Shown: one piece after another, positions 14,143 to 29,762 of the stretch
Numbering within the stretch: position 1 is the first letter of the stretch
Layout: every line of letters starts with the position of its first letter
Assembly: GCA_963767925.1 (NCBI GenBank)
Contig: CAVYGB010000008.1
Location: forward strand, 928,001-992,000
Source: an uncultured delta proteobacterium
GTDB taxonomy: Bacteria; Myxococcota_A; Polyangia; Fen-1088
Direction: 5' to 3'
DNA: 64,000 nt
The notes under the pieces: generated by a model
What the model was told of the DNA's origin: nothing
What the model saw: the letters and a program-made list of their open reading frames with translations, nothing else
The model's database searches: none
Program-made: the position numbers and the translations under genes

Positions 14143-15324
14143 GTGGCAAGGCGTGAGGGCGCCTGGGTGGTGGGGCGGCCGCAGTACCTCCCGGACTACC
14201 AGCGGGCGTTCCAGCGACGCGGGTTCGCCATGGAGCTGGTCGACCCGGAGCAAGTCCTGGCCCGGCTGGCGGAGAGCGCCGTGCGGCCGACCTTCGTCGT
14301 CGATTGTGCGCCCCTGTCGCCGCTACACGCGCGCGTTCGGGAGGTGGGCGTCACCGTCGTCAACTTGCCCTTCGACCAGTGGTACTTCTCGCCCCGGATC
14401 ACGTTGCCGCCCTGCGAGGCGATGCCCGCCGAGCACCTGGTGTTCACGCTGGCGCCGGAGCAGGTCGCGCCCTTCCGGGCCGCCGGATATGCCCACGTGG
14501 AGCATATGTTGTTCGGCGTCGACATCGAGCACTTCGACGAGCGGCCGCTCGACGAGGCGGACGCCGCGCGCTACCGGGCCGAGGTCTGTTTCGTGGGCAG
14601 CTCCCTGCGCGACCACGTCCCGGTGGACGCGTTCACCCAGACGCTGCGCAAGCACCCCGACAACCCCGCGGTCCGGGACTGGATCGCGGAGCTGTCCCGG
14701 CGGGTGGCGCCGTTCGACTACCGCCTGCCGGAGATCCTGCAGGAGATGGAGCGCGAGGCCGAGCTGTCGATCGGCGACAGCTGGGAGCTCACCCCTGCGA
14801 AGGAGAGCTGGTGCATCCTCGGCGGGATCAAGCTGTCGGAGCGCGAGCGGCTGGGGGTGGTCCGGGCCCTCTCCCGGTTCGACCTGGCGCTGTACGGATC
14901 GCCCGACTGGCGCGCGCAGCTCGCGGGGGACGCGGCGCTGGGCTGTTACCGGGGCGAGGCAGACTGGGGGGAGGAGCTGCCGAAGGTCATCAAGGGCGCG
15001 GCGGCGAACGTCAACGTCTCGAAGGCGATGTTTCCCACCGGGGTCTGCCCGCGCATCTTCGAGACGCTGGCCTGCGGGCGGCTGCTGCTGTCCAACCCCA
15101 TCCCGGCGGTGCTGGCTACCTTCGAGGAGGACCGGGAGATCGTCGCTTACCGCTCGTATGCCGAGCTGATCGACAAGGTCCGCCACTACCTCGCCCACCC
15201 CGACGCGGCGGCCGAGATCGGCCGGCGGGGCCGGGCGGCCATCGTGGCCCGGCACGGTGTCCAGGCCCGGGTCGATCGCATCGTCCAGGTCCTCGAGGAA
15301 CGGGGCCTGGTGCGCCGGGTGTAG
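14143..15324 (+). CDS. Glycosyltransferase, CgeB/GT-B (Glyco_trans_1_2-like)
   Basis: GGAGGG then GTG 14143; VCFVG, PRIFETLACG, ELIDKVRHYL..H, R..G..A. Confidence 0.82.
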   Translation: MARREGAWVVGRPQYLPDYQRAFQRRGFAMELVDPEQVLARLAESAVRPTFVVDCAPLSPLHARVREVGVTVVNLPFDQWYFSPRITLPPCEAMPAEHLVFTLAPEQVAPFRAAGYAHVEHMLFGVDIEHFDERPLDEADAARYRAEVCFVGSSLRDHVPVDAFTQTLRKHPDNPAVRDWIAELSRRVAPFDYRLPEILQEMEREAELSIGDSWELTPAKESWCILGGIKLSERERLGVVRALSRFDLALYGSPDWRAQLAGDAALGCYRGEADWGEELPKVIKGAAANVNVSKAMFPTGVCPRIFETLACGRLLLSNPIPAVLATFEEDREIVAYRSYAELIDKVRHYLAHPDAAAEIGRRGRAAIVARHGVQARVDRIVQVLEERGLVRRV

Positions 15325-15728
15325 CTTCACTCGTCCCGACGGCGGTGGGCCGCGAGGGCGACGGCCCCCGTCGCGCGCAAGGAGTGCCGGTGGCTGAAGG
15401 TGGCTGGCGGACGCAGCGGCCATGGCCTTTCTCCGATGCAGGGGAACCCAGGAAAGCCGCGGCGTCCGCGTTCTGCGGGCAGGGCGATGCCCGGCCCGCC
15501 AGCGACGCCGGCGGTCTCTTCCCCTACTGGGCAGGAGGACTTTTTCGCCTGACGTCTTCCGCCAGGCAGAGGCGGCAGCCGCAGCTCCCGCTGGCGGCAA
15601 CCCCCGCCTCACGGCAGTCTCCAGACCGTGGAGGGACCGCCGGTCGAGGCCAGCGGCCACTCGGGACTGTCTCGCCTCGTCGCCGGCCTCCCTGGAATGG
15701 CGGTGGGGCCGGCGCCGGCGAGACGGGG

Positions 15729-17546
15729 CTAGGCGCCGCCGTCGGGGGGACCGCAGGTGGCGGTGGCGCTGGTGGGTGCCCCGCTGCAGGCCAGGCCGCC
15801 CTGGCAGGGCGTCTGCCCGTCACCCGAGCAGCAGCTCTGGCCCATGCCACCGCAGGGGCGGCAGGCCTCCATCGCGCAGCGGAAGCCAGCCTGGCAGGCC
15901 GGGCCGCTGATGCAGCAGGGCTGTCCCGTGCCGCCGCAGGTGGCGCAGGTCCCGGTCACCCCCGTGTCGGAGTTGCGGCCGCTGCAGCCGAGTCCGGCCC
16001 CGCAGTCGCCTTCGTCGCCGATCCCGCAGCAGGCCTGGCCGGCCGCGCCGCAGGCTCCGCACTTGCGTCCGGTGGGCGCGAGGATGCACGAGGTGGCCGT
16101 TGCGCACTCCATGACCCCGCCGCCGCCGCTGCAGCAGGCCTGGTCCGCGGCGCCGCAGGCGCCACAGGTGCCGGGGTTGCTGCCGATCCGGCCCGCACAG
16201 CCCAGGCCGGTGCTGCAGCCGCCGCCGCCGCCGGTGCCGCAGCAGGGCTGGCCCATGCCCCCGCACGCGCGGCAGGTGTTGCCGGCCGCGGCCACCACGC
16301 AGTCCATACCGCTCTGGCAGGCATCGCCGTCTTCGCAGCAGGTCTGGCCAGGCCCACCGCACGCCTGGCACATCCCCAGGGCTGTCGCGCTCCGGCCGAC
16401 GCAGGTCTGCCCGGTCTGGCAGTCCCCGCCGCCGCCGGTGCCGCAGCAGGGCTGGCCCGCGCCGCCGCAGGTGCCGCACTTGTTGCCCGCGGCGTTGCGC
16501 AGGCAGCCCAGGGCGCCTTCACAGGCCCGCCCGTCGCCGCAGCAGGCCTGGTCGTTCTTGCCGCAGGCCTGGCAGGTGCCCCCGGCGCCCATGGTCGCGC
16601 CCAGGCAGGTGAGGCCGGTCTGACAGTTGGCGCCCGGGCAACACGCGCCGCCGGCGGCGCCGCAGGTGGCGCAGGTGGCCTCCACCGCGCCGGGGGGATC
16701 GGAGCAGCCCAGCCCGCTGTTGCAGGAATCGTCCTCGCAGCAGCGCCCGCCCGCGGTCCCGCAGGGCAGGCAGCGATCCGGCGCGCCCGCCACGCCGTCG
16801 GCGCAGACCAGGCCGCCGTTGCAGACGTCGTCGGCGCAGCAGGCCTGATCGGCCGCTCCGCACTTGGCGCAGAGGTCGGGCTGTCCCATCGCTCCGTCGA
16901 TACAGGCCAGGCCGGTGCCGCAGGCGTTGGCGTCCGAGCCCTGACAGCAGGTCTGCCCGTCCGCACCACAGCCAACGCACATGCCGGCGGTACAGCGGGC
17001 CGAGTCGCCGGTGCAGAACCCACCGCTCAGCGCGCCGCCGTCACCCGGGGTGCCGCCGCAACAGGTCTGGCCGCTGGCCCCGCAGGGGGCGCCGCTGGCG
17101 CTCGCACAGGAGCCGGCGGTGCAGGTGCCGCTGGCGCCCGCGCTGGAACAGGACTGCCCGGCCGCGATGCAGACGCGGGCGCTCCCTCCGCTCGAGGTGG
17201 GGACGCAGCAGGCGGCCCCTTCACACACGTTCGAGGCACAGCAGGCCTGTCCGGGCGCACCGCAGGGCCCGGGCGCGGCCGGTCCGCCGGTGCCCCCCAT
17301 GGGCGCGCCGGCGCCCCCCATGGGCGCGGGGCTGCCGCCCACCGGGGCGGGGCCGCCGTCGCTCCCGCCGCTGCCGGCAGCGCCCCCCGCCGGGCTGTCG
17401 CCCCCGCCACAGGAGAGGCCCGGTCCGACCGCGGCCCATCCCAGCAGCACCACCGTCGCCGCCCTCAGGCTCCAGGCGAGGGACGGACGGTGACGGCGGG
17501 CGGCCTGGGTGGGGGTCAGTTGCTCTGGGCAAGGCTTGGTCGTCAT
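15729..17546 (-). CDS. Cys-rich tandem-repeat lipoprotein
   Basis: GAGGAGG RBS, lipobox GLSC, 14 CG-x2-[GD]-[QG]-x-CC units. Confidence 0.85.
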   Translation of the reverse strand: MTTKPCPEQLTPTQAARRHRPSLAWSLRAATVVLLGWAAVGPGLSCGGGDSPAGGAAGSGGSDGGPAPVGGSPAPMGGAGAPMGGTGGPAAPGPCGAPGQACCASNVCEGAACCVPTSSGGSARVCIAAGQSCSSAGASGTCTAGSCASASGAPCGASGQTCCGGTPGDGGALSGGFCTGDSARCTAGMCVGCGADGQTCCQGSDANACGTGLACIDGAMGQPDLCAKCGAADQACCADDVCNGGLVCADGVAGAPDRCLPCGTAGGRCCEDDSCNSGLGCSDPPGAVEATCATCGAAGGACCPGANCQTGLTCLGATMGAGGTCQACGKNDQACCGDGRACEGALGCLRNAAGNKCGTCGGAGQPCCGTGGGGDCQTGQTCVGRSATALGMCQACGGPGQTCCEDGDACQSGMDCVVAAAGNTCRACGGMGQPCCGTGGGGGCSTGLGCAGRIGSNPGTCGACGAADQACCSGGGGVMECATATSCILAPTGRKCGACGAAGQACCGIGDEGDCGAGLGCSGRNSDTGVTGTCATCGGTGQPCCISGPACQAGFRCAMEACRPCGGMGQSCCSGDGQTPCQGGLACSGAPTSATATCGPPDGGA

Positions 17547-17758
17547 CCTGGGTCCTCCTCGGGTGCGGGTGAGCGGCCTCCAGATTAGTGCCGCGATCCG
17601 CGTCGATGTCGTCAAAGGTACGGGATTGGCGCACGGTCGCGCAGGGCCGGACAGGATAGACCGAAAATGCTCAAAGAAACCGCTGGGCAACGTTCCTGGA
17701 GCAGCGCGCCCGGTCTTTTACCGGGACCCGCTGAGGAGGGGCGGCGCGGCAGGAACCG

Positions 17759-20700
17759 TCACTGTTCGCGGCAGTCGGCCGGGATCTCGACCGGGCCGAA
17801 GGCGTAGGGCCGAGCCTGCTTGATCACGAGGGAGCGGGTGGGTCCCACCAGCTTCCACTCCGATTCCATGGCGAACCAGCGGTTGGCGCTGCTCGGATCG
17901 ATGCGGGGGGCGAAGTGGCTGTGCACCGCCCGCATGAGGCAGGCGATGCGGGCGACCTCCGCGGGCTGCAGCACCGGGGTGGCGATCAGGCTGCTGCGCG
18001 ACAGATAGGTGGACGGCGGATCTTTCCACCAGGCGTAAGTCATCGACTCGCTCGCCACGCCGGGGGCCGGGTTGGTGACGCTGGCCTCACCGGCCTGGGC
18101 GTTGAGGTAGTGGACGCTCCCGTAGATCGGGTTGCTGATGTCGCGGCTGACCGCCACCCCGTTGGCCCGCTCCACCCCGTCGTAGGCCTGATGAACCAGC
18201 ACCGCCATCGCCACCTGGCTCTGGTCGACGTTGCCGAGCTCGCGCTCGTCGTAGGCCCGCTCGGCCCACAGGCTGGCCCACACCGCCCGCAGGCCGTCGG
18301 CGAGCACCCGCTCGGGATCGCCGAGCGCGGCGCTCACCGAGGTGTAGAGGCCCGCCCCGCTGAAGCTCGGCAGGTCTTCGGTGTTGCTGCTCGAGCGCAG
18401 ACGGAAGCGCGCCTCGCCGAAGGCGGCCCGGGCGCCGCTCTCCACCTGCGCCAGGAGGGCCGCGTCGACGGGGTGGCTCAGGATGGCGCTGCGAACCTGC
18501 TCGAGGGCGGTGGCCCGGATGGCGGCGTCGCGGGCGAACTCCGGCCGCGCCCGCCAGCCTTGGAGCAGGGCCCGGGCGCCGCTGCCCTCGAAGTGCTCGA
18601 GCGAATGGACCACGGGCAACGCGTAGGCCACCGGCGGCACCGGCACCGGTCCCGGGCAATCGGCCTCGGTCGACTGCACGCGCATCAGCTCCGCGAGCTG
18701 CGCCGCCTTGGCCCCCAGCGCGGGCAGGCGGTCCAGGCCATGTAGCCGCAGGTCCTGCAGGCCCCGCAAGGTGAGATCGATCCGGGGCAGGATCTTCTCG
18801 CCCCGGGGCTTGCGGGACTCCCAGAAGGCCTGGGCCTCGGTTGTCGTCGCCGCGCGCACGGTGAAGCCCCCGCCGTCGACCTGCAGGCGGACCAGCGTCT
18901 CGAACAGGGGGGCCAGGCGGGCGTCCTGACGGGCGGAGACCAGGGCCATGTTGGGCGTGCCCCGGTTCCGGGTCAGCACCCCCACGTGGGACAGGGGGGT
19001 CTGGAAGGCCTCCGTGATCAGCCCGCCGACAAGCGGCACGTCGTTGGGGACGTCATCGGTGACAACGATGACATCGGGACCCAGCCGGGCCCGGGCCAGC
19101 TCGGCGGCCGGAACGAAACGCAGGACCCCGAAGCCCAGACCGGGCGTGATGGGCTGGAAGGTCTGATCCCGGAACGGCGCATTCGGCTCGAGCAGGGGCA
19201 AGGTCCCTTCGATCGCCTTCAGAAGCGCCACTTGCCGTCCCTGGGCCCGGACCGCCCAGGCGCTCGGTCGGGGGGTGCGGGCTGCTACCGCGAAGAAGGC
19301 CCGCCGCATCTGCTCGGCGCTGATCAGATCGGAGCTATCGAACTCCAGGGTCTGGACCCCGGAGCCGCCGTGGCGAACCAGGGTGGCCAGCAGGAAACGC
19401 CGGCCCGCGGTCTGGAAGTACTCTCGATCGGAGAAGGCCCGCCACCCGACATCGAAGGTGGCGGCCTGCGCCGGGTCGCAGCGATCCAGCCGCGGCTCGC
19501 CGAAGATGCGCTCGCGGATGAAGGTGTAGTGCAGCGACCATTGCCGGGCAGCGAGGAAATGCACGGTGTCCCCCGCCGCCATGTCCACCACCACCTTGGA
19601 GGCCAGCCCCTCCAGCCCGGTGCCACCTTCGCCCAGGGCCTGCAGGTCGCCCGGCGTGAGGAGCTGGCGCACCCGGTCGCCCACCTCGCGCGCGGGCAGC
19701 GGGCCGCAGCGGTCGTTTGTCGCTCCGGGCGTGGCCCGGGCGCAGAGCCGGTAGGCCACCGCGCCGCCCGCGTCGTCGCTGGCGAGCGCCAGGGTGGCTC
19801 CCTCTGGTAGCGCCAGGAAGTCGAGCCGGTGCAAGGGGGTGGCGTCGGCCCGGCGGAAGATCGTCACCACGCCCTCCATCTGCGAGGACGTGGCGCTCGC
19901 GCCGAACAGGGCGGCCAGGGTGCCGGCGGGCAGCGGGACCATCAGCCGCTCGCCGGGTGCGATCGATCCGCCGCGGGGCCAGGCCAGCTCGATCCCGTCG
20001 CGCTCGCCCGCCCAGGCGCTGCCCGGCTCCAGGCGGGTCATGCGCAGGGTGTGGCCGGCGAGGTCCAGCGCGGTGGCGTCGAGGTTGGCCACCTCGACGA
20101 AGCCGCTGGGGCGCAGGGCGATCTCGGTGACGGCCAGGCTTCCGGCCGGCTGACCGAAGCCGCCGGGCCAGGTGAACCCGGCGAACCGCACCTCCTCCGG
20201 CAGCTCGGTGGGCAAGGGCGGCCCGCAGGTGGGGCCGTTGACCCGGCCCGGACTGGCGTAGCGGCAGATCGCGAAGCCGCCGCCGTCGGGGAACCGGGCG
20301 TAGGCCACGTTGGTCTCGAGCGCGGGATAGTCGATGGCGTCGGCCAGCGCCCCCCCCACCTCGCGCAGCTCGACCCGTCCCCCGCGGGCGGCCAGCCGGA
20401 AGCCGAGGTGGGCCGGGCCCTGCTCGGGCGATCCGTCGGCCCACAGGAGCGCGGTCTCTCCCGGCGCCAGCCGGCGCGCGGGCAGGGGGTGGGGACGCCC
20501 GCCGTCGCTCAAGGTGAACCCGGCCAGGTCGATCGGCGCGGAGCTGCCGTTGCGCAGCTCGATCCAGTCGTCGGCCTGTCCGACCTCGTCGATCTGGAAG
20601 CCGTCGTCGTCGGCGCACAGCTCGTTGATCCGGAGGCCGGCCCCCGCCGCGCTGTCCCCCGATCCGTCCCGCGAGCCGTCGGCCGGCCCACCGTCGCCTC

Positions 20701-20821
20701 CACCGGGCCGCGGCGGTGGCGATTGCCCGCCGCAACCGATGTCGGGCAGCGCTGCCGCGACAAGCGTCAGAATTGCGAGAGTCCGTCCGGCCCGGGCCGG
20801 GGTTGTCGGGGTGAACGGCAT
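17759..20821 (-). CDS. Lipoprotein with lamin-tail domain(s), phospho-His swivel domain and PEP/pyruvate-binding (PPDK_N ATP-grasp) domain
   Basis: Signal ending IGC; LRINELCADD..DWIELRN..DLAGFTLSD (LTD); GLITEAFQTPLSHVGVLTRNRGTP (swivel His); GAKAAQL, RLRSSSNTED..SGAGLY, VWASLW, MAVLVHQ, KQARP (ATP-grasp). Confidence 0.85.
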   Translation of the reverse strand: MPFTPTTPARAGRTLAILTLVAAALPDIGCGGQSPPPRPGGGDGGPADGSRDGSGDSAAGAGLRINELCADDDGFQIDEVGQADDWIELRNGSSAPIDLAGFTLSDGGRPHPLPARRLAPGETALLWADGSPEQGPAHLGFRLAARGGRVELREVGGALADAIDYPALETNVAYARFPDGGGFAICRYASPGRVNGPTCGPPLPTELPEEVRFAGFTWPGGFGQPAGSLAVTEIALRPSGFVEVANLDATALDLAGHTLRMTRLEPGSAWAGERDGIELAWPRGGSIAPGERLMVPLPAGTLAALFGASATSSQMEGVVTIFRRADATPLHRLDFLALPEGATLALASDDAGGAVAYRLCARATPGATNDRCGPLPAREVGDRVRQLLTPGDLQALGEGGTGLEGLASKVVVDMAAGDTVHFLAARQWSLHYTFIRERIFGEPRLDRCDPAQAATFDVGWRAFSDREYFQTAGRRFLLATLVRHGGSGVQTLEFDSSDLISAEQMRRAFFAVAARTPRPSAWAVRAQGRQVALLKAIEGTLPLLEPNAPFRDQTFQPITPGLGFGVLRFVPAAELARARLGPDVIVVTDDVPNDVPLVGGLITEAFQTPLSHVGVLTRNRGTPNMALVSARQDARLAPLFETLVRLQVDGGGFTVRAATTTEAQAFWESRKPRGEKILPRIDLTLRGLQDLRLHGLDRLPALGAKAAQLAELMRVQSTEADCPGPVPVPPVAYALPVVHSLEHFEGSGARALLQGWRARPEFARDAAIRATALEQVRSAILSHPVDAALLAQVESGARAAFGEARFRLRSSSNTEDLPSFSGAGLYTSVSAALGDPERVLADGLRAVWASLWAERAYDERELGNVDQSQVAMAVLVHQAYDGVERANGVAVSRDISNPIYGSVHYLNAQAGEASVTNPAPGVASESMTYAWWKDPPSTYLSRSSLIATPVLQPAEVARIACLMRAVHSHFAPRIDPSSANRWFAMESEWKLVGPTRSLVIKQARPYAFGPVEIPADCREQ

Positions 20822-20846
20822 GGAATCTTCCTCGCTCCCACCCCAC

Positions 20847-20949
20847 AGCAAGGGTCGGGCCGGACCCCGGGCCCTCGAGCGGGGCACCGGCGGGAGGTGG
20901 CCGCCGGTACGCCCCCGTCCCACGACCGGAATGTCGCGATCCGGTCGTG
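20847..20949 (-). promoter_or_regulatory. Putative sigma54 promoter with an upstream palindromic activator site
   Basis: Minus strand CGGCCC-GACCC-TTGCT (20847-20862; canonical GG..GC spacing); perfect 10-bp inverted repeat CACGACCGGA-N9-TCCGGTCGTG (20921-20949). Confidence 0.6.
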
Positions 20950-21034
20950 ATCTCCATCGGCACCCGGGCGCGAATCCCGAGCGAGCCCGGGGGATCCTGC
21001 CGCTGGTCGACAAACCGTGGCACAATGACCGGCG

Positions 21035-21340
21035 TTGAAGCGGGTCATCCTCGTCGTCGCGTTCGCGCTGTTCGCCGTGCAGGCGAGCGGTCTCGCCCAG
21101 GGGGTGGAGATCCCGTGCGCGGAGCGCTGCCAGGACGACGGGCCCGATGGCCGCTGCGCCCCCACCTGCCAGGATTGTCTCTGCTGCGCCCAGGTCCGGG
21201 TGTACCCGGCGGGCGCACCCACCGCGCTGGTCCCCACGCAGCCGGTCGCGCGGATCGCCTGGCCGGCGCAAGCGACGCCGGCTTCGCCCGACCCGGGTGA
21301 GATCCTGCGGGTCCCCAAGGGCGCTCCGATCCGAACCTGA
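21035..21340 (+). CDS. Small Cys-rich exported/leader protein (CzcI/DUF2946-like)
   Basis: Hydrophobic N-terminus, C-x3-C..C-x3-C-x2-C-x-CC cluster, Pro-rich tail with EILRVPK; directly upstream of the efflux operon. Confidence 0.65.
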   Translation: MKRVILVVAFALFAVQASGLAQGVEIPCAERCQDDGPDGRCAPTCQDCLCCAQVRVYPAGAPTALVPTQPVARIAWPAQATPASPDPGEILRVPKGAPIRT

Positions 21341-21501
21341 AGCGCCTGGCTGCCGCCAGGACAGAACGCCAGAGGTGACCCGGGGAGTCCCCGGGCGGCA
21401 CCCTGCGATGGTCAGCGTCCGCCGATCGCGCGCGCCTGTGCGTGCCGGCCGGGCGCGCCCGAACCACCCGATCCATCCGCGCCCACGTCGAGAGATCCAC
21501 C

Positions 21502-22725
21502 ATGTCCCGCAAGCTCCTGTCCGCGACGGCGGCGGCGTTGTTCACGCTGCCCGCCTGGCCAACCTCTGCCCAGCCGTCCCTCACCCTCGATCGGGCCCTC
21601 GTCCTGGCCCGGGAGCGGGCGCCGGCCGTGCTGGCCGCCCGGCTGCAGATCGAGGAGGCCCGGGGCCACCTCTCCGGAGCGCGCGCCTGGCTCGCCGAGA
21701 ATCCGACCCTGAGCGGAGGGCTGGGCCGGCGCCTCGGCGTCGGCCCCGCCCGCCCCCTGGAGGCGCAGGTCGAGCTGAGCCAGCCGGTCGAGCTCGGCGG
21801 GCGCCGCGCAGCCCGGATCGAGGCCGCCGACGCCGGGGTGGCGGCGGCCGCCGCCGGCAGCGAGGGGACGCTCCGGGAGACGGAGGCGCAGGTGGCGCGG
21901 GCCTTCTTCCGGGCTCTGTTCGCGGCCGAGCGGGCCCGGCTGGCGGCGGCGACCCAGGAGACGGCGGCCCACTCGGCGCGGGCGCTCGAGCGCAGGCATC
22001 AGGTGGGCGACGTGCCGATCCTCGAGGTGAACCTGGCCCGGACCGCCCTGGCGCGGGCGTCGGCCGAGGTCCGGGGTGCGCGGGCGCTCGAGCTGGCGGC
22101 GCTGGGGGACCTCGAGGTCCTCCTCGGCCTCGAGCCGGGGGCCAGCGTCGCGGTGTCGGGCCGCCTCGAGGATCAGCGCCGCTACGACCTCCCGCGCCTG
22201 CTCGAGCGGTCCGGACAGCGCTCCGACACGCGGGCGCTGCTGGCGGAGGCCCGGGCGGCGCGCGCCCAGGCGTCCCTGGCCCGGGCCGAGCGCTGGCCGC
22301 GCCTGGGCCTGGGCGGCTCGTTCGAGCGCGAGGACGGCGAGGACCTCGTGCTCGGGACGCTGTCGCTGGAGCTCCCCGTCTTCCAGCGCGGGCAGGGCCT
22401 GCGGGCGGCGGCGGAGGCCCGGGCCCGGCGCCTGGCCGGGCAGGCCGAGGCCACCCGGCGGGCAGCCGAGGCGGCGGTGCGGGTGGCGTTCGAGGTCCAC
22501 CAGCAGCGCCTGGCCGCCGCGCGCGCGCTGCAGGAGGTCCTGCCGCTGGTGGCCGACAACGAGGCGCTGGCCAGCCGCAGCCTGGAGGCCGGCCAGCTCT
22601 CCCTGGCCGACTGGCTGGTGGTCCGCCGGGAGGCGCTCGAGACCCGCCGGGAGTACCTCGAGCGCCTGCTGGAAGCGGCCGACGCCGGGGTGGGGCTGGC
22701 GCTGGCCGCCGGGGTGTCGCCATGA
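21502..22725 (+). CDS. czcC: TolC-family outer-membrane factor (CzcC-like)
   Basis: Signal peptide, ENPTLS, LSQPVELGGRRAARI, LELPVFQRGQG; first gene of a CBA triad. Confidence 0.88.
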   Translation: MSRKLLSATAAALFTLPAWPTSAQPSLTLDRALVLARERAPAVLAARLQIEEARGHLSGARAWLAENPTLSGGLGRRLGVGPARPLEAQVELSQPVELGGRRAARIEAADAGVAAAAAGSEGTLRETEAQVARAFFRALFAAERARLAAATQETAAHSARALERRHQVGDVPILEVNLARTALARASAEVRGARALELAALGDLEVLLGLEPGASVAVSGRLEDQRRYDLPRLLERSGQRSDTRALLAEARAARAQASLARAERWPRLGLGGSFEREDGEDLVLGTLSLELPVFQRGQGLRAAAEARARRLAGQAEATRRAAEAAVRVAFEVHQQRLAAARALQEVLPLVADNEALASRSLEAGQLSLADWLVVRREALETRREYLERLLEAADAGVGLALAAGVSP

Positions 22726-23933
22726 CCCGGCCGCGGCTCTCCGCGCTGCTGATCGCCGCCGCGACCCTGGCGGTGGGGGCCTGCAAGCGCGGGCATGAAG
22801 ACGGGCACGGGGACGACGATCACCCGCCCCGGGCCGGCGAGGCCGCCGGCGAGCACGCGCCGGTGAAGGCGGCCGATCCCGGGCTGCTGCGGGTCGATCC
22901 CGAGATGGTGCGCGACCTGCGCATCACGACCGCCCGGGTCGAGAGCCGGCCCGGCGACGAGGGGGTCACCCTGCTGGGCGAGCTGCAGGTCGATCAGGAG
23001 CGCTACGCCGAGGTGGGCGTCCCGGTGAGCGGGCGGATCCACCGCCTGCTCGCCGCGCCCGGCGATCGCGTGAAGGCCGGACAGGTGCTCGCCGAGGTCG
23101 AGAGCGTCGAGCTCGGCAAGGTCCGGGCGGCCGAGGTGGGGGCCCGGGCCCGGGCCGAGCTGGCCCGCCTGACTCTCGAGCGCAAGGGCCGCCTGGTGGC
23201 CGAGCGGATCCTGGCCGAGCGCGAGCTGGAGGAGGCCCAGGCCGACGCGAAGGCGGCGGAGGCCGAGCTGCGGGCCGCCCGCAGCACGCTCTCGGCGCTG
23301 GGGAGCGCGGCCGCCGGCGAGGGGGGAGGGGGGGCCCGCTTCGCCCTGCGCACGCCGGTCGCCGGCACGGTCCTCGAGCGGGAGGTGGCGCGCGGGCAAA
23401 GTGTCGACCCCGACAAGCGGCTGTTTCGCATCGCCGACCTCGGCAACCTCTGGTTGACCGTGCACGCCTTCGAGCGCGACGCCCTCCGGGTGCGCACCGG
23501 GGCCCAGGCCCGGGTGACCTTCCCCGCGCTGCCGGGACGGACCTTCAAGGGGCAGGTCTCCTGGGTCGGCAGCCAGGTCGACGTCACCTCCCGGACCATC
23601 CCGGTGCGGGTGACGGTGCCCAACCCCGAAGCGCTGCTCCGCCCGGGGATGTCGGCGAGCGCGTTCATCCTGGTGGGCGATCCCGCCAGCAAGGTCATCA
23701 CCGTGCCGGCGGCCTCCCTGCAGCGGCTCGATCGGGACTGGGTGGTGTTTCTCCCCGCCGACGCGCGCCACAGCTTCCAGGTGCGGCGGGTGGGCCGGGG
23801 CCGCGACCTCGGAGGCGAGGTCGAGATCGTGTCGAACCTGTCGGCCGGCGAGGTGGTGGTCGTCGATGGGGCCTTCCTGCTCAAGGCCGAGGCGGAGAAG
23901 GCCCGCGGCATGGGCGAGCGACACGAGCACTGA
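22722..23933 (+). CDS. czcB: RND periplasmic adaptor subunit (CzcB-like)
   Basis: Lipobox VGAC, His-rich N-terminus, GDRVKAGQVL, IADLGNLW, LRPGM, DGAFLLKAE; ATGA overlap. Confidence 0.9.
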   Translation: MTRPRLSALLIAAATLAVGACKRGHEDGHGDDDHPPRAGEAAGEHAPVKAADPGLLRVDPEMVRDLRITTARVESRPGDEGVTLLGELQVDQERYAEVGVPVSGRIHRLLAAPGDRVKAGQVLAEVESVELGKVRAAEVGARARAELARLTLERKGRLVAERILAERELEEAQADAKAAEAELRAARSTLSALGSAAAGEGGGGARFALRTPVAGTVLEREVARGQSVDPDKRLFRIADLGNLWLTVHAFERDALRVRTGAQARVTFPALPGRTFKGQVSWVGSQVDVTSRTIPVRVTVPNPEALLRPGMSASAFILVGDPASKVITVPAASLQRLDRDWVVFLPADARHSFQVRRVGRGRDLGGEVEIVSNLSAGEVVVVDGAFLLKAEAEKARGMGERHEH

Positions 23934-23941
23934 GGAACGCC

Positions 23942-26900
23942 ATGACCCTCGTCGACCGCGTCGTCGCGACAAGCTTTCGCCGGGCCCCGGTGGTCCTGGT
24001 CCTGGTCCTGGCCGGGGCCGCCGCCGGCGTGCTCGGGTTCGGGCAGCTCCGCCGGGACGTGTTTCCCGACCTCTCGGCGCCGGTGTTCAACGTCATCGTG
24101 CAGAACGCCGCCATGGGCGCCGAGGAGCTGGAGATCGGAGTGGCCGTCCCGCTCGAGGCGGCCCTCGCCGGTCTGCCCGACGTCCGCCGCATCCGCTCGA
24201 GCTCCCAGCTCGGCGTGGCCCAGGTGACCATCGAGTTCGAGGCCCGGGCCGACTACCACCGGGCCCGCCAGCTCGTGGCCGAGCGGGTCGCCCAGGCGGC
24301 CCCCCAGCTCCCCGCGGGGACCGACCGGCCCCTGGTCTCCAGCCTGACCGGCCGGCTCAACGAGATCCTGGAGTTCACCCTGGAGGCCCGCCCCGGGGTG
24401 GCCGACCTGATGACCTTGCGCGACCTGGCCGAGTTCGAGGTGCAGAACCGCCTGCTGGCGGTGCCGGGGGTGGCGGCGGTCGAGATCCTGGGCGGCTACC
24501 TCCGGCAGTTCCAGATCCTCCTCGATCCCGATCGCCTGGCCGCGCGGGGCGTGACCCTCGACGAGGTCATGCACGCCGCCGAGGGAGCCAACCTCGACGC
24601 CTCGGGCGGCTTCCTGGTGCGCGGGCCGACCGAGTGGTCGGTGCGGGCCATGGCGCGGGCCGGTCGGGTCGAGGACATCCGCTCGACGGTCGTGGCGGTG
24701 CGGGGAGGGACCCCGGTCAACCTCGGCGACGTGGCCGAGGTGCGGGAGGGGCCGGCGGTGCGGCGGGGCATCGCCCACCGCCTGCGGGGAGAGGTGGTGA
24801 GCTGCCGGGTGGTCAAGCAGTTCGGGGCCGACACGGTCAAGGTGGCGGACGAGGTGCGCCGGGCCATCGCCGAGCTGGCCGTCGGGCTGCCCCGGGGAGT
24901 GGCCTTGCGGGTTGTGTACGACCAGGCCGATCTGGTGCGGGCCTCGCTCGACGGGGTGGGGCGGGCGGTGCTGGCGGGCGCGGCCTTCGTGGTCCTCGTC
25001 ATCTTCCTGCTGCTCGGCAACCTGCGGGCCGCCCTCGTCGTGACGGTCACCATCCCGCTGTCGCTCGCCCTGGCCGGGCTGGTCCTCGAGCAGATCGGCG
25101 TGGGCCTCAACGCCATGACCCTGGGGGGGCTGGCGGTGGCGGTCGGCCTCCTGGTGGACGCCTCGATCATCGTCACCGAAAACGTGGTCCACAGGCTGAA
25201 CCAGGAAGGCAGCGCCGATCGGCGGGAGCGGGTGATCGCAGCCGCCCAGGAGGTCGGCCGCCCCATCGCCTTCGCCACCCTGATCGTCGTCGCCGTCTTC
25301 GCGCCCCTCATCGGGCTGACCGGCCTGGAGGGGCGCATGTACCAGCCGCTGGCCATCGCGGTCATCGCCTCGGTGCTGGCCGCGCTGGCGCTGTCGTTGA
25401 CCCTGGTGCCCCTGCTGGCGAGCCTGCTCATCCGCGGCCGGCCCGGCGCTGGCCCGGACGGGGGCGACGTCTGGCTGATCCGGGCGGTGAAGGCCCGCTA
25501 CCGGCCGCTGCTCGCCTGGTGCCTGCGGCGGGCCGGGCTGGTGCGCCTGGCGACGCTGGGGTTGACCCTGCCGGCGGTCGCCCTGGCCCTGACCATCGGC
25601 ACCGACTTCATGCCCCGGATCGACGAAGGCGCCCTGCTGCTGCAGACCGTGCTGCCCGCGGAGGCCTCGCTCGACGAGGTCGACCGGCTCAACCACCGGG
25701 TCGAGGACGTGTTGCGGAACTTCTCCGAGGTCGACGACGTCGTCCGCCGCACCGGCCGGGCGGAGCGCACGGAGGATCCCATGCCCCACACCGTCTCGGA
25801 CGTGCTGGTGGTGCTGCATCCCGATCGAGCTCGCTCCCGCGAGGAGCTGGAGCGGGCCATGCGGGCCGCCCTGGCGAAGGTCCCGGGGGTGTCGGTCCTG
25901 TTCACCACCCCGCTCGGCATGCGCATCGACGAGGGGCTGGGCGGCACCCCCGCCGACCTCGCGGTCCGGATCTTCGGCACCGATCTCACGGTGCTCGGGC
26001 AGCTCGCCGGGCAGGCCGAGGCCATCATGACCCGGGTGCGGGGGCTGGCCGACCTGCGCAGCGAGCAGCTCGGCGGCTTGCCCCAGCTCCGGGTCAACGT
26101 AGATCGGGCGGCGGTGGCCCGGGTGGGCCTCACCCCCGGCGACGTGGTGCGGGCCGTGCGCATCGGGCTGGTTGGCGAGCAGGTCTCGGAGATCTGGGTG
26201 GGGCAGCGGCGCTTCGATCTCATCGTGAGGTTGCAGGACGAGCGCCGGAGCAGCGCCGAGTCGATCCGGGCCCTGTTCATCGACGGCCATGACGGCACCC
26301 GCATCCCGCTGGGCCAGCTCGCCGAGATCGAAGAGGCCTTCGGCGCCGGGGCCATCCGGCGGGAGGCGGGTAGCCGCCGGATCGCGGTGGAGGCCTCGGT
26401 GGGGGGACGGGACCTCGGCGGCGCGGCGGCGGAGGTGCGGCGCGCGCTCGCCGCCGACCTGAAGCTGCCCCCCGGCTATTTCTTCGACGTGGGCGGGCGG
26501 GCCGAGAGCCAGGCCCGGGCCACCCGCGCGCTGGTCGTCGCCCTGGCCCTGGCCCTGGTGGCGGTCTTCCTCCTGCTCTACCTGGCTCTCGGCAGCCTGG
26601 CCGAGGTGCTCGTCATCCTGGCGACCCTGCCCGACGCGTTCGTCGGTGGCATCCTGGCGCTGCTGATCGCGGGGGAGACCTGGAACGTCTCCTCCCTGGT
26701 GGGCCTCATCGGCCTGTTCGGGATCGCCGTGCAGAACGGGCTGGTGCTCGTCTCGCAGACCCGCGACCTGCTGGCCGCGGGCCTGCCCTTCGATAGGGCG
26801 CTGTCGGAGGCCTGCCTGGGCCGGGTGCGGCCCAAGCTGATGACGGCGGCCACCGCGATCCTCGGCCTCTTGCCCCTGCTGGTGTTGCCCCTGCACGGCA

Positions 26901-27046
26901 CCGAGATCGAGCGGCCGCTGGCGGTGGTCATGATCGGCGGCCTCGTCACCTCGACCCTCTTCACCTTGCTGGCGTTGCCGACTTTCTATGTTCTGGTCAA
27001 TCAGCTGCGGGTTTCCTGGCGGTCGCGGCGAGGCAAGAACGCGTGA
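23942..27046 (+). CDS. czcA: Heavy-metal RND permease (CzcA/CusA family)
   Basis: DVFPDLS, GLLVDASIIVTEN, FMPRIDEG, RVRPKLMTA, GTEIERPLAVVMIGGL; substrate metal uncertain. Confidence 0.9.
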   Translation: MTLVDRVVATSFRRAPVVLVLVLAGAAAGVLGFGQLRRDVFPDLSAPVFNVIVQNAAMGAEELEIGVAVPLEAALAGLPDVRRIRSSSQLGVAQVTIEFEARADYHRARQLVAERVAQAAPQLPAGTDRPLVSSLTGRLNEILEFTLEARPGVADLMTLRDLAEFEVQNRLLAVPGVAAVEILGGYLRQFQILLDPDRLAARGVTLDEVMHAAEGANLDASGGFLVRGPTEWSVRAMARAGRVEDIRSTVVAVRGGTPVNLGDVAEVREGPAVRRGIAHRLRGEVVSCRVVKQFGADTVKVADEVRRAIAELAVGLPRGVALRVVYDQADLVRASLDGVGRAVLAGAAFVVLVIFLLLGNLRAALVVTVTIPLSLALAGLVLEQIGVGLNAMTLGGLAVAVGLLVDASIIVTENVVHRLNQEGSADRRERVIAAAQEVGRPIAFATLIVVAVFAPLIGLTGLEGRMYQPLAIAVIASVLAALALSLTLVPLLASLLIRGRPGAGPDGGDVWLIRAVKARYRPLLAWCLRRAGLVRLATLGLTLPAVALALTIGTDFMPRIDEGALLLQTVLPAEASLDEVDRLNHRVEDVLRNFSEVDDVVRRTGRAERTEDPMPHTVSDVLVVLHPDRARSREELERAMRAALAKVPGVSVLFTTPLGMRIDEGLGGTPADLAVRIFGTDLTVLGQLAGQAEAIMTRVRGLADLRSEQLGGLPQLRVNVDRAAVARVGLTPGDVVRAVRIGLVGEQVSEIWVGQRRFDLIVRLQDERRSSAESIRALFIDGHDGTRIPLGQLAEIEEAFGAGAIRREAGSRRIAVEASVGGRDLGGAAAEVRRALAADLKLPPGYFFDVGGRAESQARATRALVVALALALVAVFLLLYLALGSLAEVLVILATLPDAFVGGILALLIAGETWNVSSLVGLIGLFGIAVQNGLVLVSQTRDLLAAGLPFDRALSEACLGRVRPKLMTAATAILGLLPLLVLPLHGTEIERPLAVVMIGGLVTSTLFTLLALPTFYVLVNQLRVSWRSRRGKNA

Positions 27047-28185: not shown

Positions 28186-28222
28186 CCCCTGGAGCCCGGT
28201 CGGACAGCCGTCTCGCGGAGGT

Positions 28223-28324
28223 GGACACCTGTCCGCCGTCGATCCGGACATTCCCGGACGTTCCCGGACGTTCGCCTCTGGTCGCGGCGGACCGGCGGGG
28301 GAACCGCGTGGCACGCCTCTTGAT
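28223..28324 (+). promoter_or_regulatory. Putative sigma54 promoter with three 10-bp tandem repeats upstream
   Basis: TGGCACG-CCTC-TTGAT (28309-28324); CCGGACATTC-CCGGACGTTC-CCGGACGTTC (28244-28273); GGACA-CC-TGTCC (28223-28234). Confidence 0.65.
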
Positions 28325-28371
28325 GAGGAGCGGGCCAGGTCCCGATCACCTCTCACCGAAAGCAAGCCACC

Positions 28372-29762
28372 ATGACAAACCTCCCCACGCGCCTGCTGGT
28401 CTCCTCGGCCCTCCTCCTCGCCGCGCCTCTCCTCGGCGCCGGCTGTGGCGACGATCCGTCCGCCCCCGCCCAGCCGTCCGGGTCACCCGGCGAGCCGCCC
28501 ACCTACGCGAAGGACGTGGCCCCCATCCTCGAGGCCAAGTGCACCAAGTGCCACCGCGAGGGCGGCATCGGCCCCTTCCGGCTCACCAGCTACGAGCAGG
28601 CCCGCACGATGGCCTTGCCGATGGCGGCGGCGACCCGGGCCGGCACCATGCCGCCCTATTACATCACCCACGACGGGACCTGCGGCGACTTCGACGACCA
28701 CGAGGCGCTGAGCCCCGGCGAGATCGAGACCCTCTACGCCTGGGCCACCGGCGGGCAGAAGGAGGGCACCCCGGTGGCCCTCCCCCCGGCGGCGTCGGTC
28801 ACGAGCCTTCGGGCCAACGTCGAGCTGCGCACGCCGACCATCAGCCCCGTTGCCCAGGGTGGGCCGCTCGCGATGAACGACGAATACCGCTGCTTTCCCA
28901 TGGAGAGCGGGGGCGGCGCGGATCGCTTCCTGATCGGCTACGACATCGTCCCGGGCAATCCGGCCATCGTGCACCACGTGGAGGCCTTCTTCGTGAACGC
29001 CGAGCAGCGGAACAGCGCGGGCAAGACCGGAGCGGAGGTCATGCAGGCCCTCGACGACGCCGACCCGGACCGACCGGGCTGGCCCTGCTTCAGCTCGGCG
29101 GCCGACGACCTCGGCGATCAGAACATCCCGATCATCTGGGCGCCCGGCCAGGGACCCATCGTGTTCCCGGCGGGCATGGGGTGCGGCAGCGCAAGAGCGA
29201 TCGTCTGATCGTCCAGGTGCACTACAACCTCGGCCACGCCGGCCACGGCCACGGGGTGGCGGCCGCGGGCGCCTCGGACTCGACGACCCTCCGGCTCCAG
29301 TACGCCGACTCGGTCGAGCGCCAGGCGGTGGTGATGCCGATCGACCTCTTCCTCTCGACAATCGCCCAGCCGGAGCCGGCCTCCCTCCCTCCGGGGATGC
29401 CCTCCACCCGCTTCACCGGCCGGATGACGGGCGCCGACATCGGGCTCGGCTCGGAGGTCCCTTGGGTCGAGGTCGTCAGCATGATGCCGCACATGCACGG
29501 GCGCGGGCTGGGCCAGGAGATGCGCTTCCGCCAGCCAGGCGAGCCGAGCCAGTGCACCTCGAAGCTCGAGCGCTGGAACTTCAACTGGCAGAAGGTCTAC
29601 TTCTACCAGGGCACGCGCCCGCGCATCACCGCCGGCACCGAGATCGAGGTGTCCTGTGACTACGACACCTCGCGGGACACCTCCCCCGTGTTTCCCGGCT
29701 GGGGCACCGAAAACGAGATGTGCAGCGCCATCATGATGGTCGCCTTGCCTCCCGGCCTGTGA
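28372..29762 (+). pseudogene. c-type haem plus copper type II (PHM/DBH-like) monooxygenase lipoprotein, split by a 1-nt deletion (pseudogene or sequencing error)
   Basis: Lipobox GAGC, CTKCH and VHHV are in one frame; QVHY, PHMH and NEMC are in another. One extra G in the run 29178-29181 restores GMGVRQRKSDRLIVQVHY. Confidence 0.8.

Follow-up and report, generated by a model that had tools for sequence, protein, structure and literature searches.

In the present study, a 64,000-nucleotide stretch of DNA from an uncultured delta proteobacterium of the Polyangia (contig CAVYGB010000008.1, positions 928,001 to 992,000; hereafter, the window) was analyzed, and a gene on its minus strand, P0001, was found to encode a dikinase-like protein with a lipoprotein-type signal, lamin-tail domains (LTDs), an unclassified domain here termed K/H, a phospho-His swivel and a C-terminal PPDK_N-type ATP-grasp (Table 1). 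It is probable that this protein is an exported phospho-His relay enzyme tied to envelope phosphate handling, a core common to our preferred reading and to the first two rivals weighed below. The preferred reading itself, to which we give slightly less than an even chance, is that of a lipid-anchored extracytoplasmic water-dikinase serving an envelope phosphate module.

The catalytic anatomy was examined in an AlphaFold2 model of the core (residues 378-1020; mean pLDDT 96, pTM 0.92). Residues 555-673 of the model matched the C-terminal domain of pyruvate kinase (2e28; Z 10.0, root-mean-square deviation (rmsd) 3.1, 100 residues aligned), enzyme I (5woy; Z 9.8, rmsd 3.9, 110 aligned) and the PPDK carrier domain (2fm4; Z 8.4, rmsd 3.0, 100 aligned), and the C-terminal part matched the ATP-grasp of rifampin phosphotransferase (RPH, 5hv1; Z 31.0, rmsd 1.9, 292 aligned). 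RPH is the closest solved structure, and the ATP-grasp is nearer to the water dikinases than to PPDK (Z 16.7). A preliminary description of the window, made from its letters alone, had placed the swivel His at codon 18986-18988 and a PPDK_N ATP-grasp with several quoted motifs at the C-terminus; the codon is that of His612, and the ATP-grasp and its motifs were confirmed (Pfam PPDK_N, residues 701-897, E 3.5e-17). The conservation of this His across homologs, raised in the same description as a point to check, is borne out by its presence in 143 of 144 aligned members and in 67 of 67 sequences of a wider set, and the single exception, P0145, also has no PPDK_N match. In the ATP-grasp, R1004 is kept in 144/144 members, K705, R809, S828 and Q1002 each in 143/144, and E988 in 142/144, and thus the full catalytic set of swivel and ATP-grasp is retained across the family. 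By our reading of the alignments, K705, R809 and S828 align with Lys22, Arg117 and Thr136 of RPH, residues that, in the cited passages of PMC4844700, position ATP for attack of the His on the beta-phosphate.

The glucan-water-dikinase-like domain order that had been proposed, with the swivel ahead of a C-terminal ATP-grasp, is upheld. By sequence score, the swivel leans towards the glucan-water dikinases rather than the PEP-utilisers: GWD1_pHisD (PF22973) was matched weakly in 8 of 26 members (best E 7.9e-5) and PEP-utilizers in none of the 26, with the window swivel itself reaching E 0.18 and 11.8 bits against a curated cut-off of 27. The Atlas yielded two leads, both under 0.9: one to an unnamed Myxococcota cluster (0.81), the other to a GWD1_pHisD cluster (0.76). 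Neither Pfam, NCBIfam nor the core model revealed a pyruvate-binding barrel in the window protein, in agreement with the absence reported earlier. NCBIfam matches to RPH (NF041857, 47.1 bits against a cut-off of 999), PEP synthase (TIGR01418, 42.2 bits against 739.75) and PigC/RedH covered only the ATP-grasp and were all far under the cut-offs. A wrong-frame artefact, a degenerate pseudo-enzyme and a cytoplasmic PEP synthase, PPDK or RPH were each rejected as explanations of the window gene.

The region ahead of the swivel had been described as an uncharacterised domain, a wording that stands, and its second invariant His had been missed. This K/H domain folds confidently on its own (pLDDT 95.8). 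His431, which opens a helix in both the core model and the model of the domain alone, is invariant in 144/144 aligned members and in 41/41 sequences of a more divergent domain alignment, and K409 (137/144), Y468 (141/144), R474 (139/144) and D498 (134/144) are near-invariant. Because of this position and conservation, the K/H domain is likely to be a second active site, presumably the acceptor site. A search for stand-alone K/H proteins, limited to 70-342 aa, returned 12 matches, and the 7 inspected look like fragments or frameshifted members. The K/H profile gave one chance match among PDB sequences and no recurring Pfam family among the 41 members. When the K/H domain and the swivel were folded as two chains, the score was 0.26 against a mark of 0.32.

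At the N-terminus, the signal peptide ends in TLAILTLVAAALPDIG-C30, in line with the lipoprotein-type signal that had been claimed; the Asp at position -3 is atypical for a lipobox, and Gly occupies this position in both closest relatives (83% and 81% identical). The claimed lamin-tail domain was recovered by Pfam at residues 57-165 (E 7e-15, two stretches). The probable second Ig/LTD-like unit, residues 224-376, scored as an LTD with E 0.0014 when taken alone and could be aligned to LTD 1; therefore, we regard it as a divergent second LTD. The sole phmmer match of LTD 1 elsewhere in its own genome lies on a CotH kinase, and of the 8 further LTD proteins encoded there, 7 are CotH kinases by our own profiles.

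The family was collected with the core (residues 378-1020) as query, and among 8000 scored candidates 1527 proteins had E <= 1e-10. The best 120 matches are 53-100% identical to the query and mostly LTD + PPDK_N proteins of about 1000 aa, the named ones being mostly Polyangia/Myxococcota. Among 50%-identity representatives, 796 had E <= 1e-30, the weaker of which may include ATP-grasp-only matches. With a 26-sequence profile at 1e-60, the family was detected in 56 of 151 genomes of the window's phylum, with up to 9 matches per genome, and in 2 of 301 genomes of the phylum to which a record titled Sphingobacterium belongs, that record being one of the two (only 4 candidates scored per genome). 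Named members further afield are from Fibrobacterota, Cellvibrionaceae, Prolixibacteraceae, Pseudobdellovibrio and Fusobacteriota. The window's genome holds two more dikinase paralogues, each with a lipobox, as well as two RPH-like proteins that have no signal, and in the cultured genus Sorangium all main forms of the family are present. The statement of the preliminary description that no characterised example is known agrees with our survey of literature listings, largely open-access, in which no account of the family was found; the family is apparently undescribed.

Export was called with our own signal heuristic rather than SignalP, with 2 of 120 close and 30 of 147 distant sequences excluded as truncated or devoid of the K/H domain. 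A lipobox was called in 81 of 118 scorable close relatives, and most of the 37 misses start inside the protein or just ahead of the Cys. Among 117 scorable distant representatives, 69 had a lipobox and 31 only a hydrophobic region (100/117 together), compared with 139 and 152, respectively, of 920 neighbouring ORFs used as a control. The N-terminal additions differ between members (LTD, FN3, Calx-beta or CarboxypepD_reg), as would be expected of targeting modules. Judged from these predicted signals, the family is mostly signal-bearing and appears built for export.

Several unusual members were also observed. Two giant secreted proteins, P0150 (3227 aa) and P0236 (2025 aa), carry two PPDK_N units each together with FN3/Calx-beta or AIR9-type Ig domains. 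A divergent clade of about 1050-1150 aa (L112, L117, L137) has a C-terminal extension beyond the ATP-grasp, and lipoproteins with an FGE-sulfatase domain follow it. LTD-clade members occur in records titled Sphingobacterium and Cellvibrionaceae (L046, L026, L045, L049, L056), and the three of these placed on the family tree (FastTree) are nested among myxobacterial sequences, for which transfer and mis-binning are both possible.

A gene association connects the family with phosphate clusters. Among the 113 family loci of the 151-genome sample, with split hits merged, VTC genes lie within 10 kb at 9 loci against 0.43 expected (Poisson P 1e-9, kin not being independent). In a second set, for which 20 of 52 rows from a search for relatives were picked by rank and contig size, VTC lies within 4 kb at 6 of 12 non-LTD loci and at 0 of 8 LTD loci, at least three of these 8 appearing to repeat earlier records. 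The short, LTD-less clades behave unlike the LTD clade in their neighbourhood. VTC-linked members fall in three clades, the LTD clade included through L022, and several such loci were fetched because of VTC. The clusters contain VTC, DUF4956, a HlyD-type adaptor, an outer-membrane factor or phosphate porin, CotH kinases and free LTD proteins, and may also hold a Na/Pi cotransporter or phosphoesterases. The CotH-kinase neighbours that had been suggested are real at this level, with none in the window itself. At the level of genomes, VTC was matched in 46/56 genomes with the family compared with 28/95 without, and CotH in 49/56 compared with 30/95. The converse is weaker, with the dikinase in 46 of 74 VTC genomes and 49 of 79 CotH genomes, and because of this weaker reverse dependence the dikinase looks like a client of the VTC module.

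Other features of these clusters are recorded here. The most frequent neighbour of short dikinases is an unnamed Cys-containing lipoprotein family of about 350 aa, lipA (L084, L085, L099, L101, L105, L114, L121, L123, L133, L174, L175, L177-L179, L182; in the window's genome, G000:C10 just past 1677320), for which no NCBIfam family (3 tested) and no Pfam match (10 tested) was found and whose Atlas clusters are unnamed. A second unnamed lipoprotein family of about 260 aa, lipB, with conserved GGNHHND and YHSSFG motifs that are possibly a metal site, stands beside one dikinase clade (L114, L115, L124-L127, L129, L130). The HlyD-type adaptor of the VTC clusters (L121:10256-12391, L140:3503-5563, L143:11453-13465) has an extra C-terminal domain scoring weakly as DUF6929/DUF6910/phytase-like. 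Six of eight VTC proteins (L098, L138, L139, L141, L142, L148) start with R-x-E-x-K-Y, in which Arg takes the place of the first acidic-patch Glu of the tunnel phosphatases and the second Glu is kept, so that a polymerase and a phosphatase are both possible. VTC, DUF4956 and CotH all match in the same 3 of 14 control genomes (B. thetaiotaomicron, C. glutamicum and M. acetivorans), and the B. subtilis control genome has a CotH match only.

Herein, we propose a water-dikinase mechanism built on the observed anatomy, conserved residues, swivel and ATP-grasp folds and gene association. The ATP-grasp would hand the beta-phosphate of ATP to His612 with release of AMP and Pi, a chemistry that we infer from RPH and the glucan water dikinases (GWDs), and the swivel would carry the phosphate to the K/H pocket. 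There, Lys409 and Arg474 might hold the phosphate, and His431 might act as the general base on a hydroxyl acceptor, such as an envelope glycan, a lipid head group or a surface protein. After the presumed export, the lamin-tail domains could position the enzyme where the CotH kinases of its own genome sit. Like CotH, the dikinase would be a client of an envelope phosphate module consisting of the VTC tunnel enzyme, the DUF4956 membrane protein, the adaptor and the outer-membrane channel, and this module would probably provide phosphate-bond energy as polyphosphate. The forward dikinase reaction is strongly favourable (textbook values). Besides these thermodynamics, the reading fits the characterised relatives, a layout like that of GWD, targeting modules that vary and the numbers of paralogues.

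Several points weigh against the water-dikinase reading. ATP is generally considered to be absent from the periplasm, and this reading names no source of ATP outside; to our knowledge, the characterised swivel-His dikinases all operate where ATP is at hand. The acceptor role of the K/H domain is read from position and conservation, with no convincing fold match: none of 48,161 chains reached Z >= 5 (best 4.4), Foldseek against PDB and viral structures gave nothing at E <= 0.001, and the best value in a further fold search was Z 4.5, a lack from which no new fold can be concluded. The most divergent clades vary or are unaligned at K409 (55/67 kept), R474 (59/67) and D498 (54/67), and Y468 is likewise more variable there. 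Among the 80 loci closest to the window gene, no recurring partner gene was found, with VTC at 2/80 (one LTD-type) and CotH at 1/80; together with the VTC-free LTD loci of the second set, this makes the LTD clade almost always an orphan, so the link of the window gene to the module is indirect. Moreover, 10 of 56 dikinase genomes have no VTC match, and co-occurrence among genomes is confounded by kinship and genome size. In addition, bacterial VTC domains may make or break polyphosphate. As described in the cited part of PMC4641920, yeast Vtc4 makes polyphosphate from ATP and its complex translocates the polymer, and other tunnel enzymes are phosphatases.

Given the link of the family to phosphate clusters of VTC, DUF4956 and CotH, the reverse, ATP-making direction and plain hydrolysis are live rivals. 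Thus, the periplasmic or surface phospho-His enzyme of the preliminary description has stood in its signal, found family-wide, its retained swivel His and its intact ATP-grasp, and its consumption of ATP is contested. In the reverse direction, exported polyphosphate would load His612 through the basic K/H pocket, forming phospho- and then pyrophospho-His, and the swivel would bring the pyrophosphoryl group to the ATP-grasp for transfer to AMP, regenerating ATP in the envelope for co-localised CotH kinases. We consider such regeneration doubtful. It would resolve the missing-ATP problem, and it draws on the basic pocket residues, on the LTD module common to the dikinase and the CotH kinases, and on compact clusters of dikinase, VTC, DUF4956, adaptor and outer-membrane factor, often without CotH in the fetched stretch (L085, L139, L141, L150, L151). 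The conversion of AMP and polyP(n) to ATP and polyP(n-2) is also roughly neutral to mildly uphill by textbook values, yet transfer of a single phosphoryl group from polyphosphate with Pi and AMP would be far uphill, and we know of no precedent for polyphosphate loading a swivel His. Kinases yield ADP, whereas this type of ATP-grasp uses AMP; CotH, VTC and DUF4956 exist without the dikinase (CotH in 30/95 genomes lacking the family); and the S. intermedius pel operon has four extra genes, none of them a dikinase. The fuller proposal, that the family regenerates extracytoplasmic ATP from polyphosphate that VTC-DUF4956 makes and exports, via a (pyro)phospho-His relay, powering the many exported CotH kinases, with PHPT1 having a prokaryotic cousin in the K/H domain and the starch dikinases a bacterial sister group in the family, is in our view fairly improbable.

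In the hydrolytic alternative, the K/H domain would be a PHPT1-like phosphohistidine phosphatase with water as acceptor, and ATP from lysed prey would be converted to AMP and 2 Pi, which phosphate porins and Na/Pi transporters would import and VTC would store. Porin_O_P occurs among the neighbours (L138, L086), as do a Na/Pi cotransporter with a nucleotide pyrophosphatase (L022) and metallophosphoesterases (L129, L142), and the Lys-strand/His-at-helix-start layout of the K/H domain seems to resemble that of PHPT1, as a lead only. The PHPT1 site, in the cited portions of PMC4817053 and PMC11277029, comprises Lys21, His53 as general base and Arg78, which recall K409, H431 and R474. However, the match to human PHPT1 (2nmm; Z 3.5, rmsd 4.2, 88 of 113 residues aligned) ranks 8th and lies within the background, no PF05005 or PHPT1 sequence match was obtained with the K/H profile or among its 41 members. 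The PF05005 profile itself matched 0/151 genomes and likewise 0/14 control genomes, and this result is uninformative. A three-domain relay would be costly compared with simple phosphatases, and adaptor and TolC-type genes suggest export rather than uptake; scavenging of this kind is therefore unlikely. The LTD clade might instead be decoupled from the VTC/CotH module and phosphorylate a small outside molecule, inactivating or tagging it as RPH does rifampin. The neighbourless 80 closest loci and 8 loci from relatives, and RPH as nearest structure, speak for this, but the LTD-clade locus L022 lies inside a cluster of VTC, Na/Pi, DUF4956 and pyrophosphatase genes, and free LTD genes occur in short-form clusters (L085, L086, L098), which makes the LTD fusion look like a component of that system. 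The problem of outside ATP would also persist, and we judge decoupling very unlikely.

In comparison with known systems, the dikinase resembles GWD and RPH in its predicted anatomy and is a member of neither. Like GWD and the phosphoglucan water dikinases (PWD; PF22973 + PF01326), it has binding modules, an acceptor region, a His swivel and a C-terminal ATP-grasp in this order. Unlike them, it is bacterial with a lipoprotein or Sec signal, has a small alpha/beta K/H domain, scores below the PF22973 cut-off in all values shown, and carries LTDs in place of starch-binding modules, which are CBM45/CBM20 in GWD/PWD. LTDs were the only N-terminal Pfam domains in the window protein, with no starch-binding module found, and no GWD/PWD-type glucan genes are conserved near the dikinase loci. 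Plant GWDs presumably share the EDL..GAGLY stretch of the family. GWDs are described in the cited part of 10.64898/2026.09.25.754361 as tracking starch in eukaryotes. With RPH and PEP synthase, the dikinase shares the ATP-grasp subtype, the phosphate-binding residues and the swivel His, but the domain order is reversed, there is no rifampin-binding domain or pyruvate barrel, and a signal would export it; RPH runs from an ATP-grasp through the rifampin-binding domain to a C-terminal His domain, and PPDK and PEP synthase have an N-terminal ATP-grasp and a C-terminal barrel. The pel operon of S. intermedius and NELoc-2 of C. perfringens contain CotH, VTC-domain and DUF4956 accessory genes, the same three families that neighbour the dikinase, with no dikinase among the genes described, whereas the Gram-negative dikinase clusters add the adaptor, an outer-membrane factor or porin and the two unnamed lipoprotein families. 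For PHPT1/Janus (PF05005), the possible likeness lies in a Lys on the first strand, a His at a helix start and, further on, a conserved residue in a loop between strand and helix; the K/H domain differs in its helical insertion and its fusion to a His donor, besides the lack of a sequence match and the low Z.

Thus, a large family apparently built for export, with a full catalytic set, is linked to genes for polyphosphate-tunnel and CotH proteins, and the dikinase gives direct biochemical access to the question of how exported kinases are powered in the bacterial envelope. The family also provides a presumed acceptor domain for which structural searches gave no clear match, it is a candidate relative, in bacteria, of the enzymes that phosphorylate starch, and its gene link with polyphosphate hints at a possible route by which bacteria could transfer phosphate groups beyond the cytoplasm.

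Table 1. Features of the dikinase-like gene in the window (window coordinates).
Feature	Position	Strand	Basis
Dikinase-like lipoprotein gene P0001, whole, 1020 aa	17759..20821	minus	translation without internal stop, Pfam
GAGGA, Shine-Dalgarno-like, 7 nt ahead of ATG	20829..20833	minus	sequence read by eye
Lipoprotein-type signal peptide, residues 1-29, and Cys30 (codon 20732-20734)	20732..20821	minus	heuristic
LTD 1, residues 57-200 including tail	20222..20653	minus	Pfam
LTD 2, divergent, residues 224-376	19694..20152	minus	Pfam E 0.0014 and alignment to LTD 1
K/H domain, unclassified, 176 aa, residues 378-553, presumed acceptor site	19163..19690	minus	conservation, model
K/H-domain residues Lys409, His431, Tyr468, Arg474, Asp498	Lys409 19595-19597; His431 19529-19531	minus	
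Phospho-His swivel, residues 555-672; His612 codon 18986-18988	18806..19159	minus	fold match, conservation
PPDK_N-type ATP-grasp, residues 684-1020: Lys705, Arg809, Ser828, Glu988, Gln1002, Arg1004	17762..18772	minus	

At the window locus, a divergent RND efflux operon lies upstream of the gene and a Cys-rich repeat protein downstream, neither of which is conserved. No sigma-70 promoter or intrinsic terminator was found over 15300-21500. An operon with the window neighbours was rejected, since of 7 neighbour proteins only CzcA matched any of 100 related loci (2 loci). The upstream operon (21035-27046, plus strand) encodes a small Cys-rich secreted protein (101 aa), an outer-membrane factor, a CusB/HlyD adaptor and an AcrB-family pump and looks like a Czc/Cus-type metal efflux system; its OEP/HlyD/AcrB genes, considered as a VTC-type adaptor set, were rejected as such and represent an ordinary RND pump. 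The downstream protein (15729-17546, minus strand, about 210 nt from the dikinase on the same strand) is 605 aa long, has a start resembling a signal and contains 90 Cys as well as 11 CGxxGxxCC repeats; it had no Pfam or NCBIfam match and was not found near the 100 related loci.

The VTC/CotH/DUF4956 cluster is not at the window locus; elsewhere in the genome, VTC is represented by two genes, CotH by at least 13 matches and DUF4956 by one weak match. Of the two VTC genes, one (L149, G000:C2:1918000-1936000) lies between a thymidylate-kinase-like protein and a Na/Pi cotransporter and the other (L148, G000:C13:208000-226000) downstream of a TonB-receptor-like barrel. Further along the window, at 28372-29762 on the plus strand, a copper monooxygenase-like lipoprotein has its N-terminal part (frame of 28372-29208) and its C-terminal domain (frame of 28221-29762) in different frames, probably through a frameshift or sequencing error.

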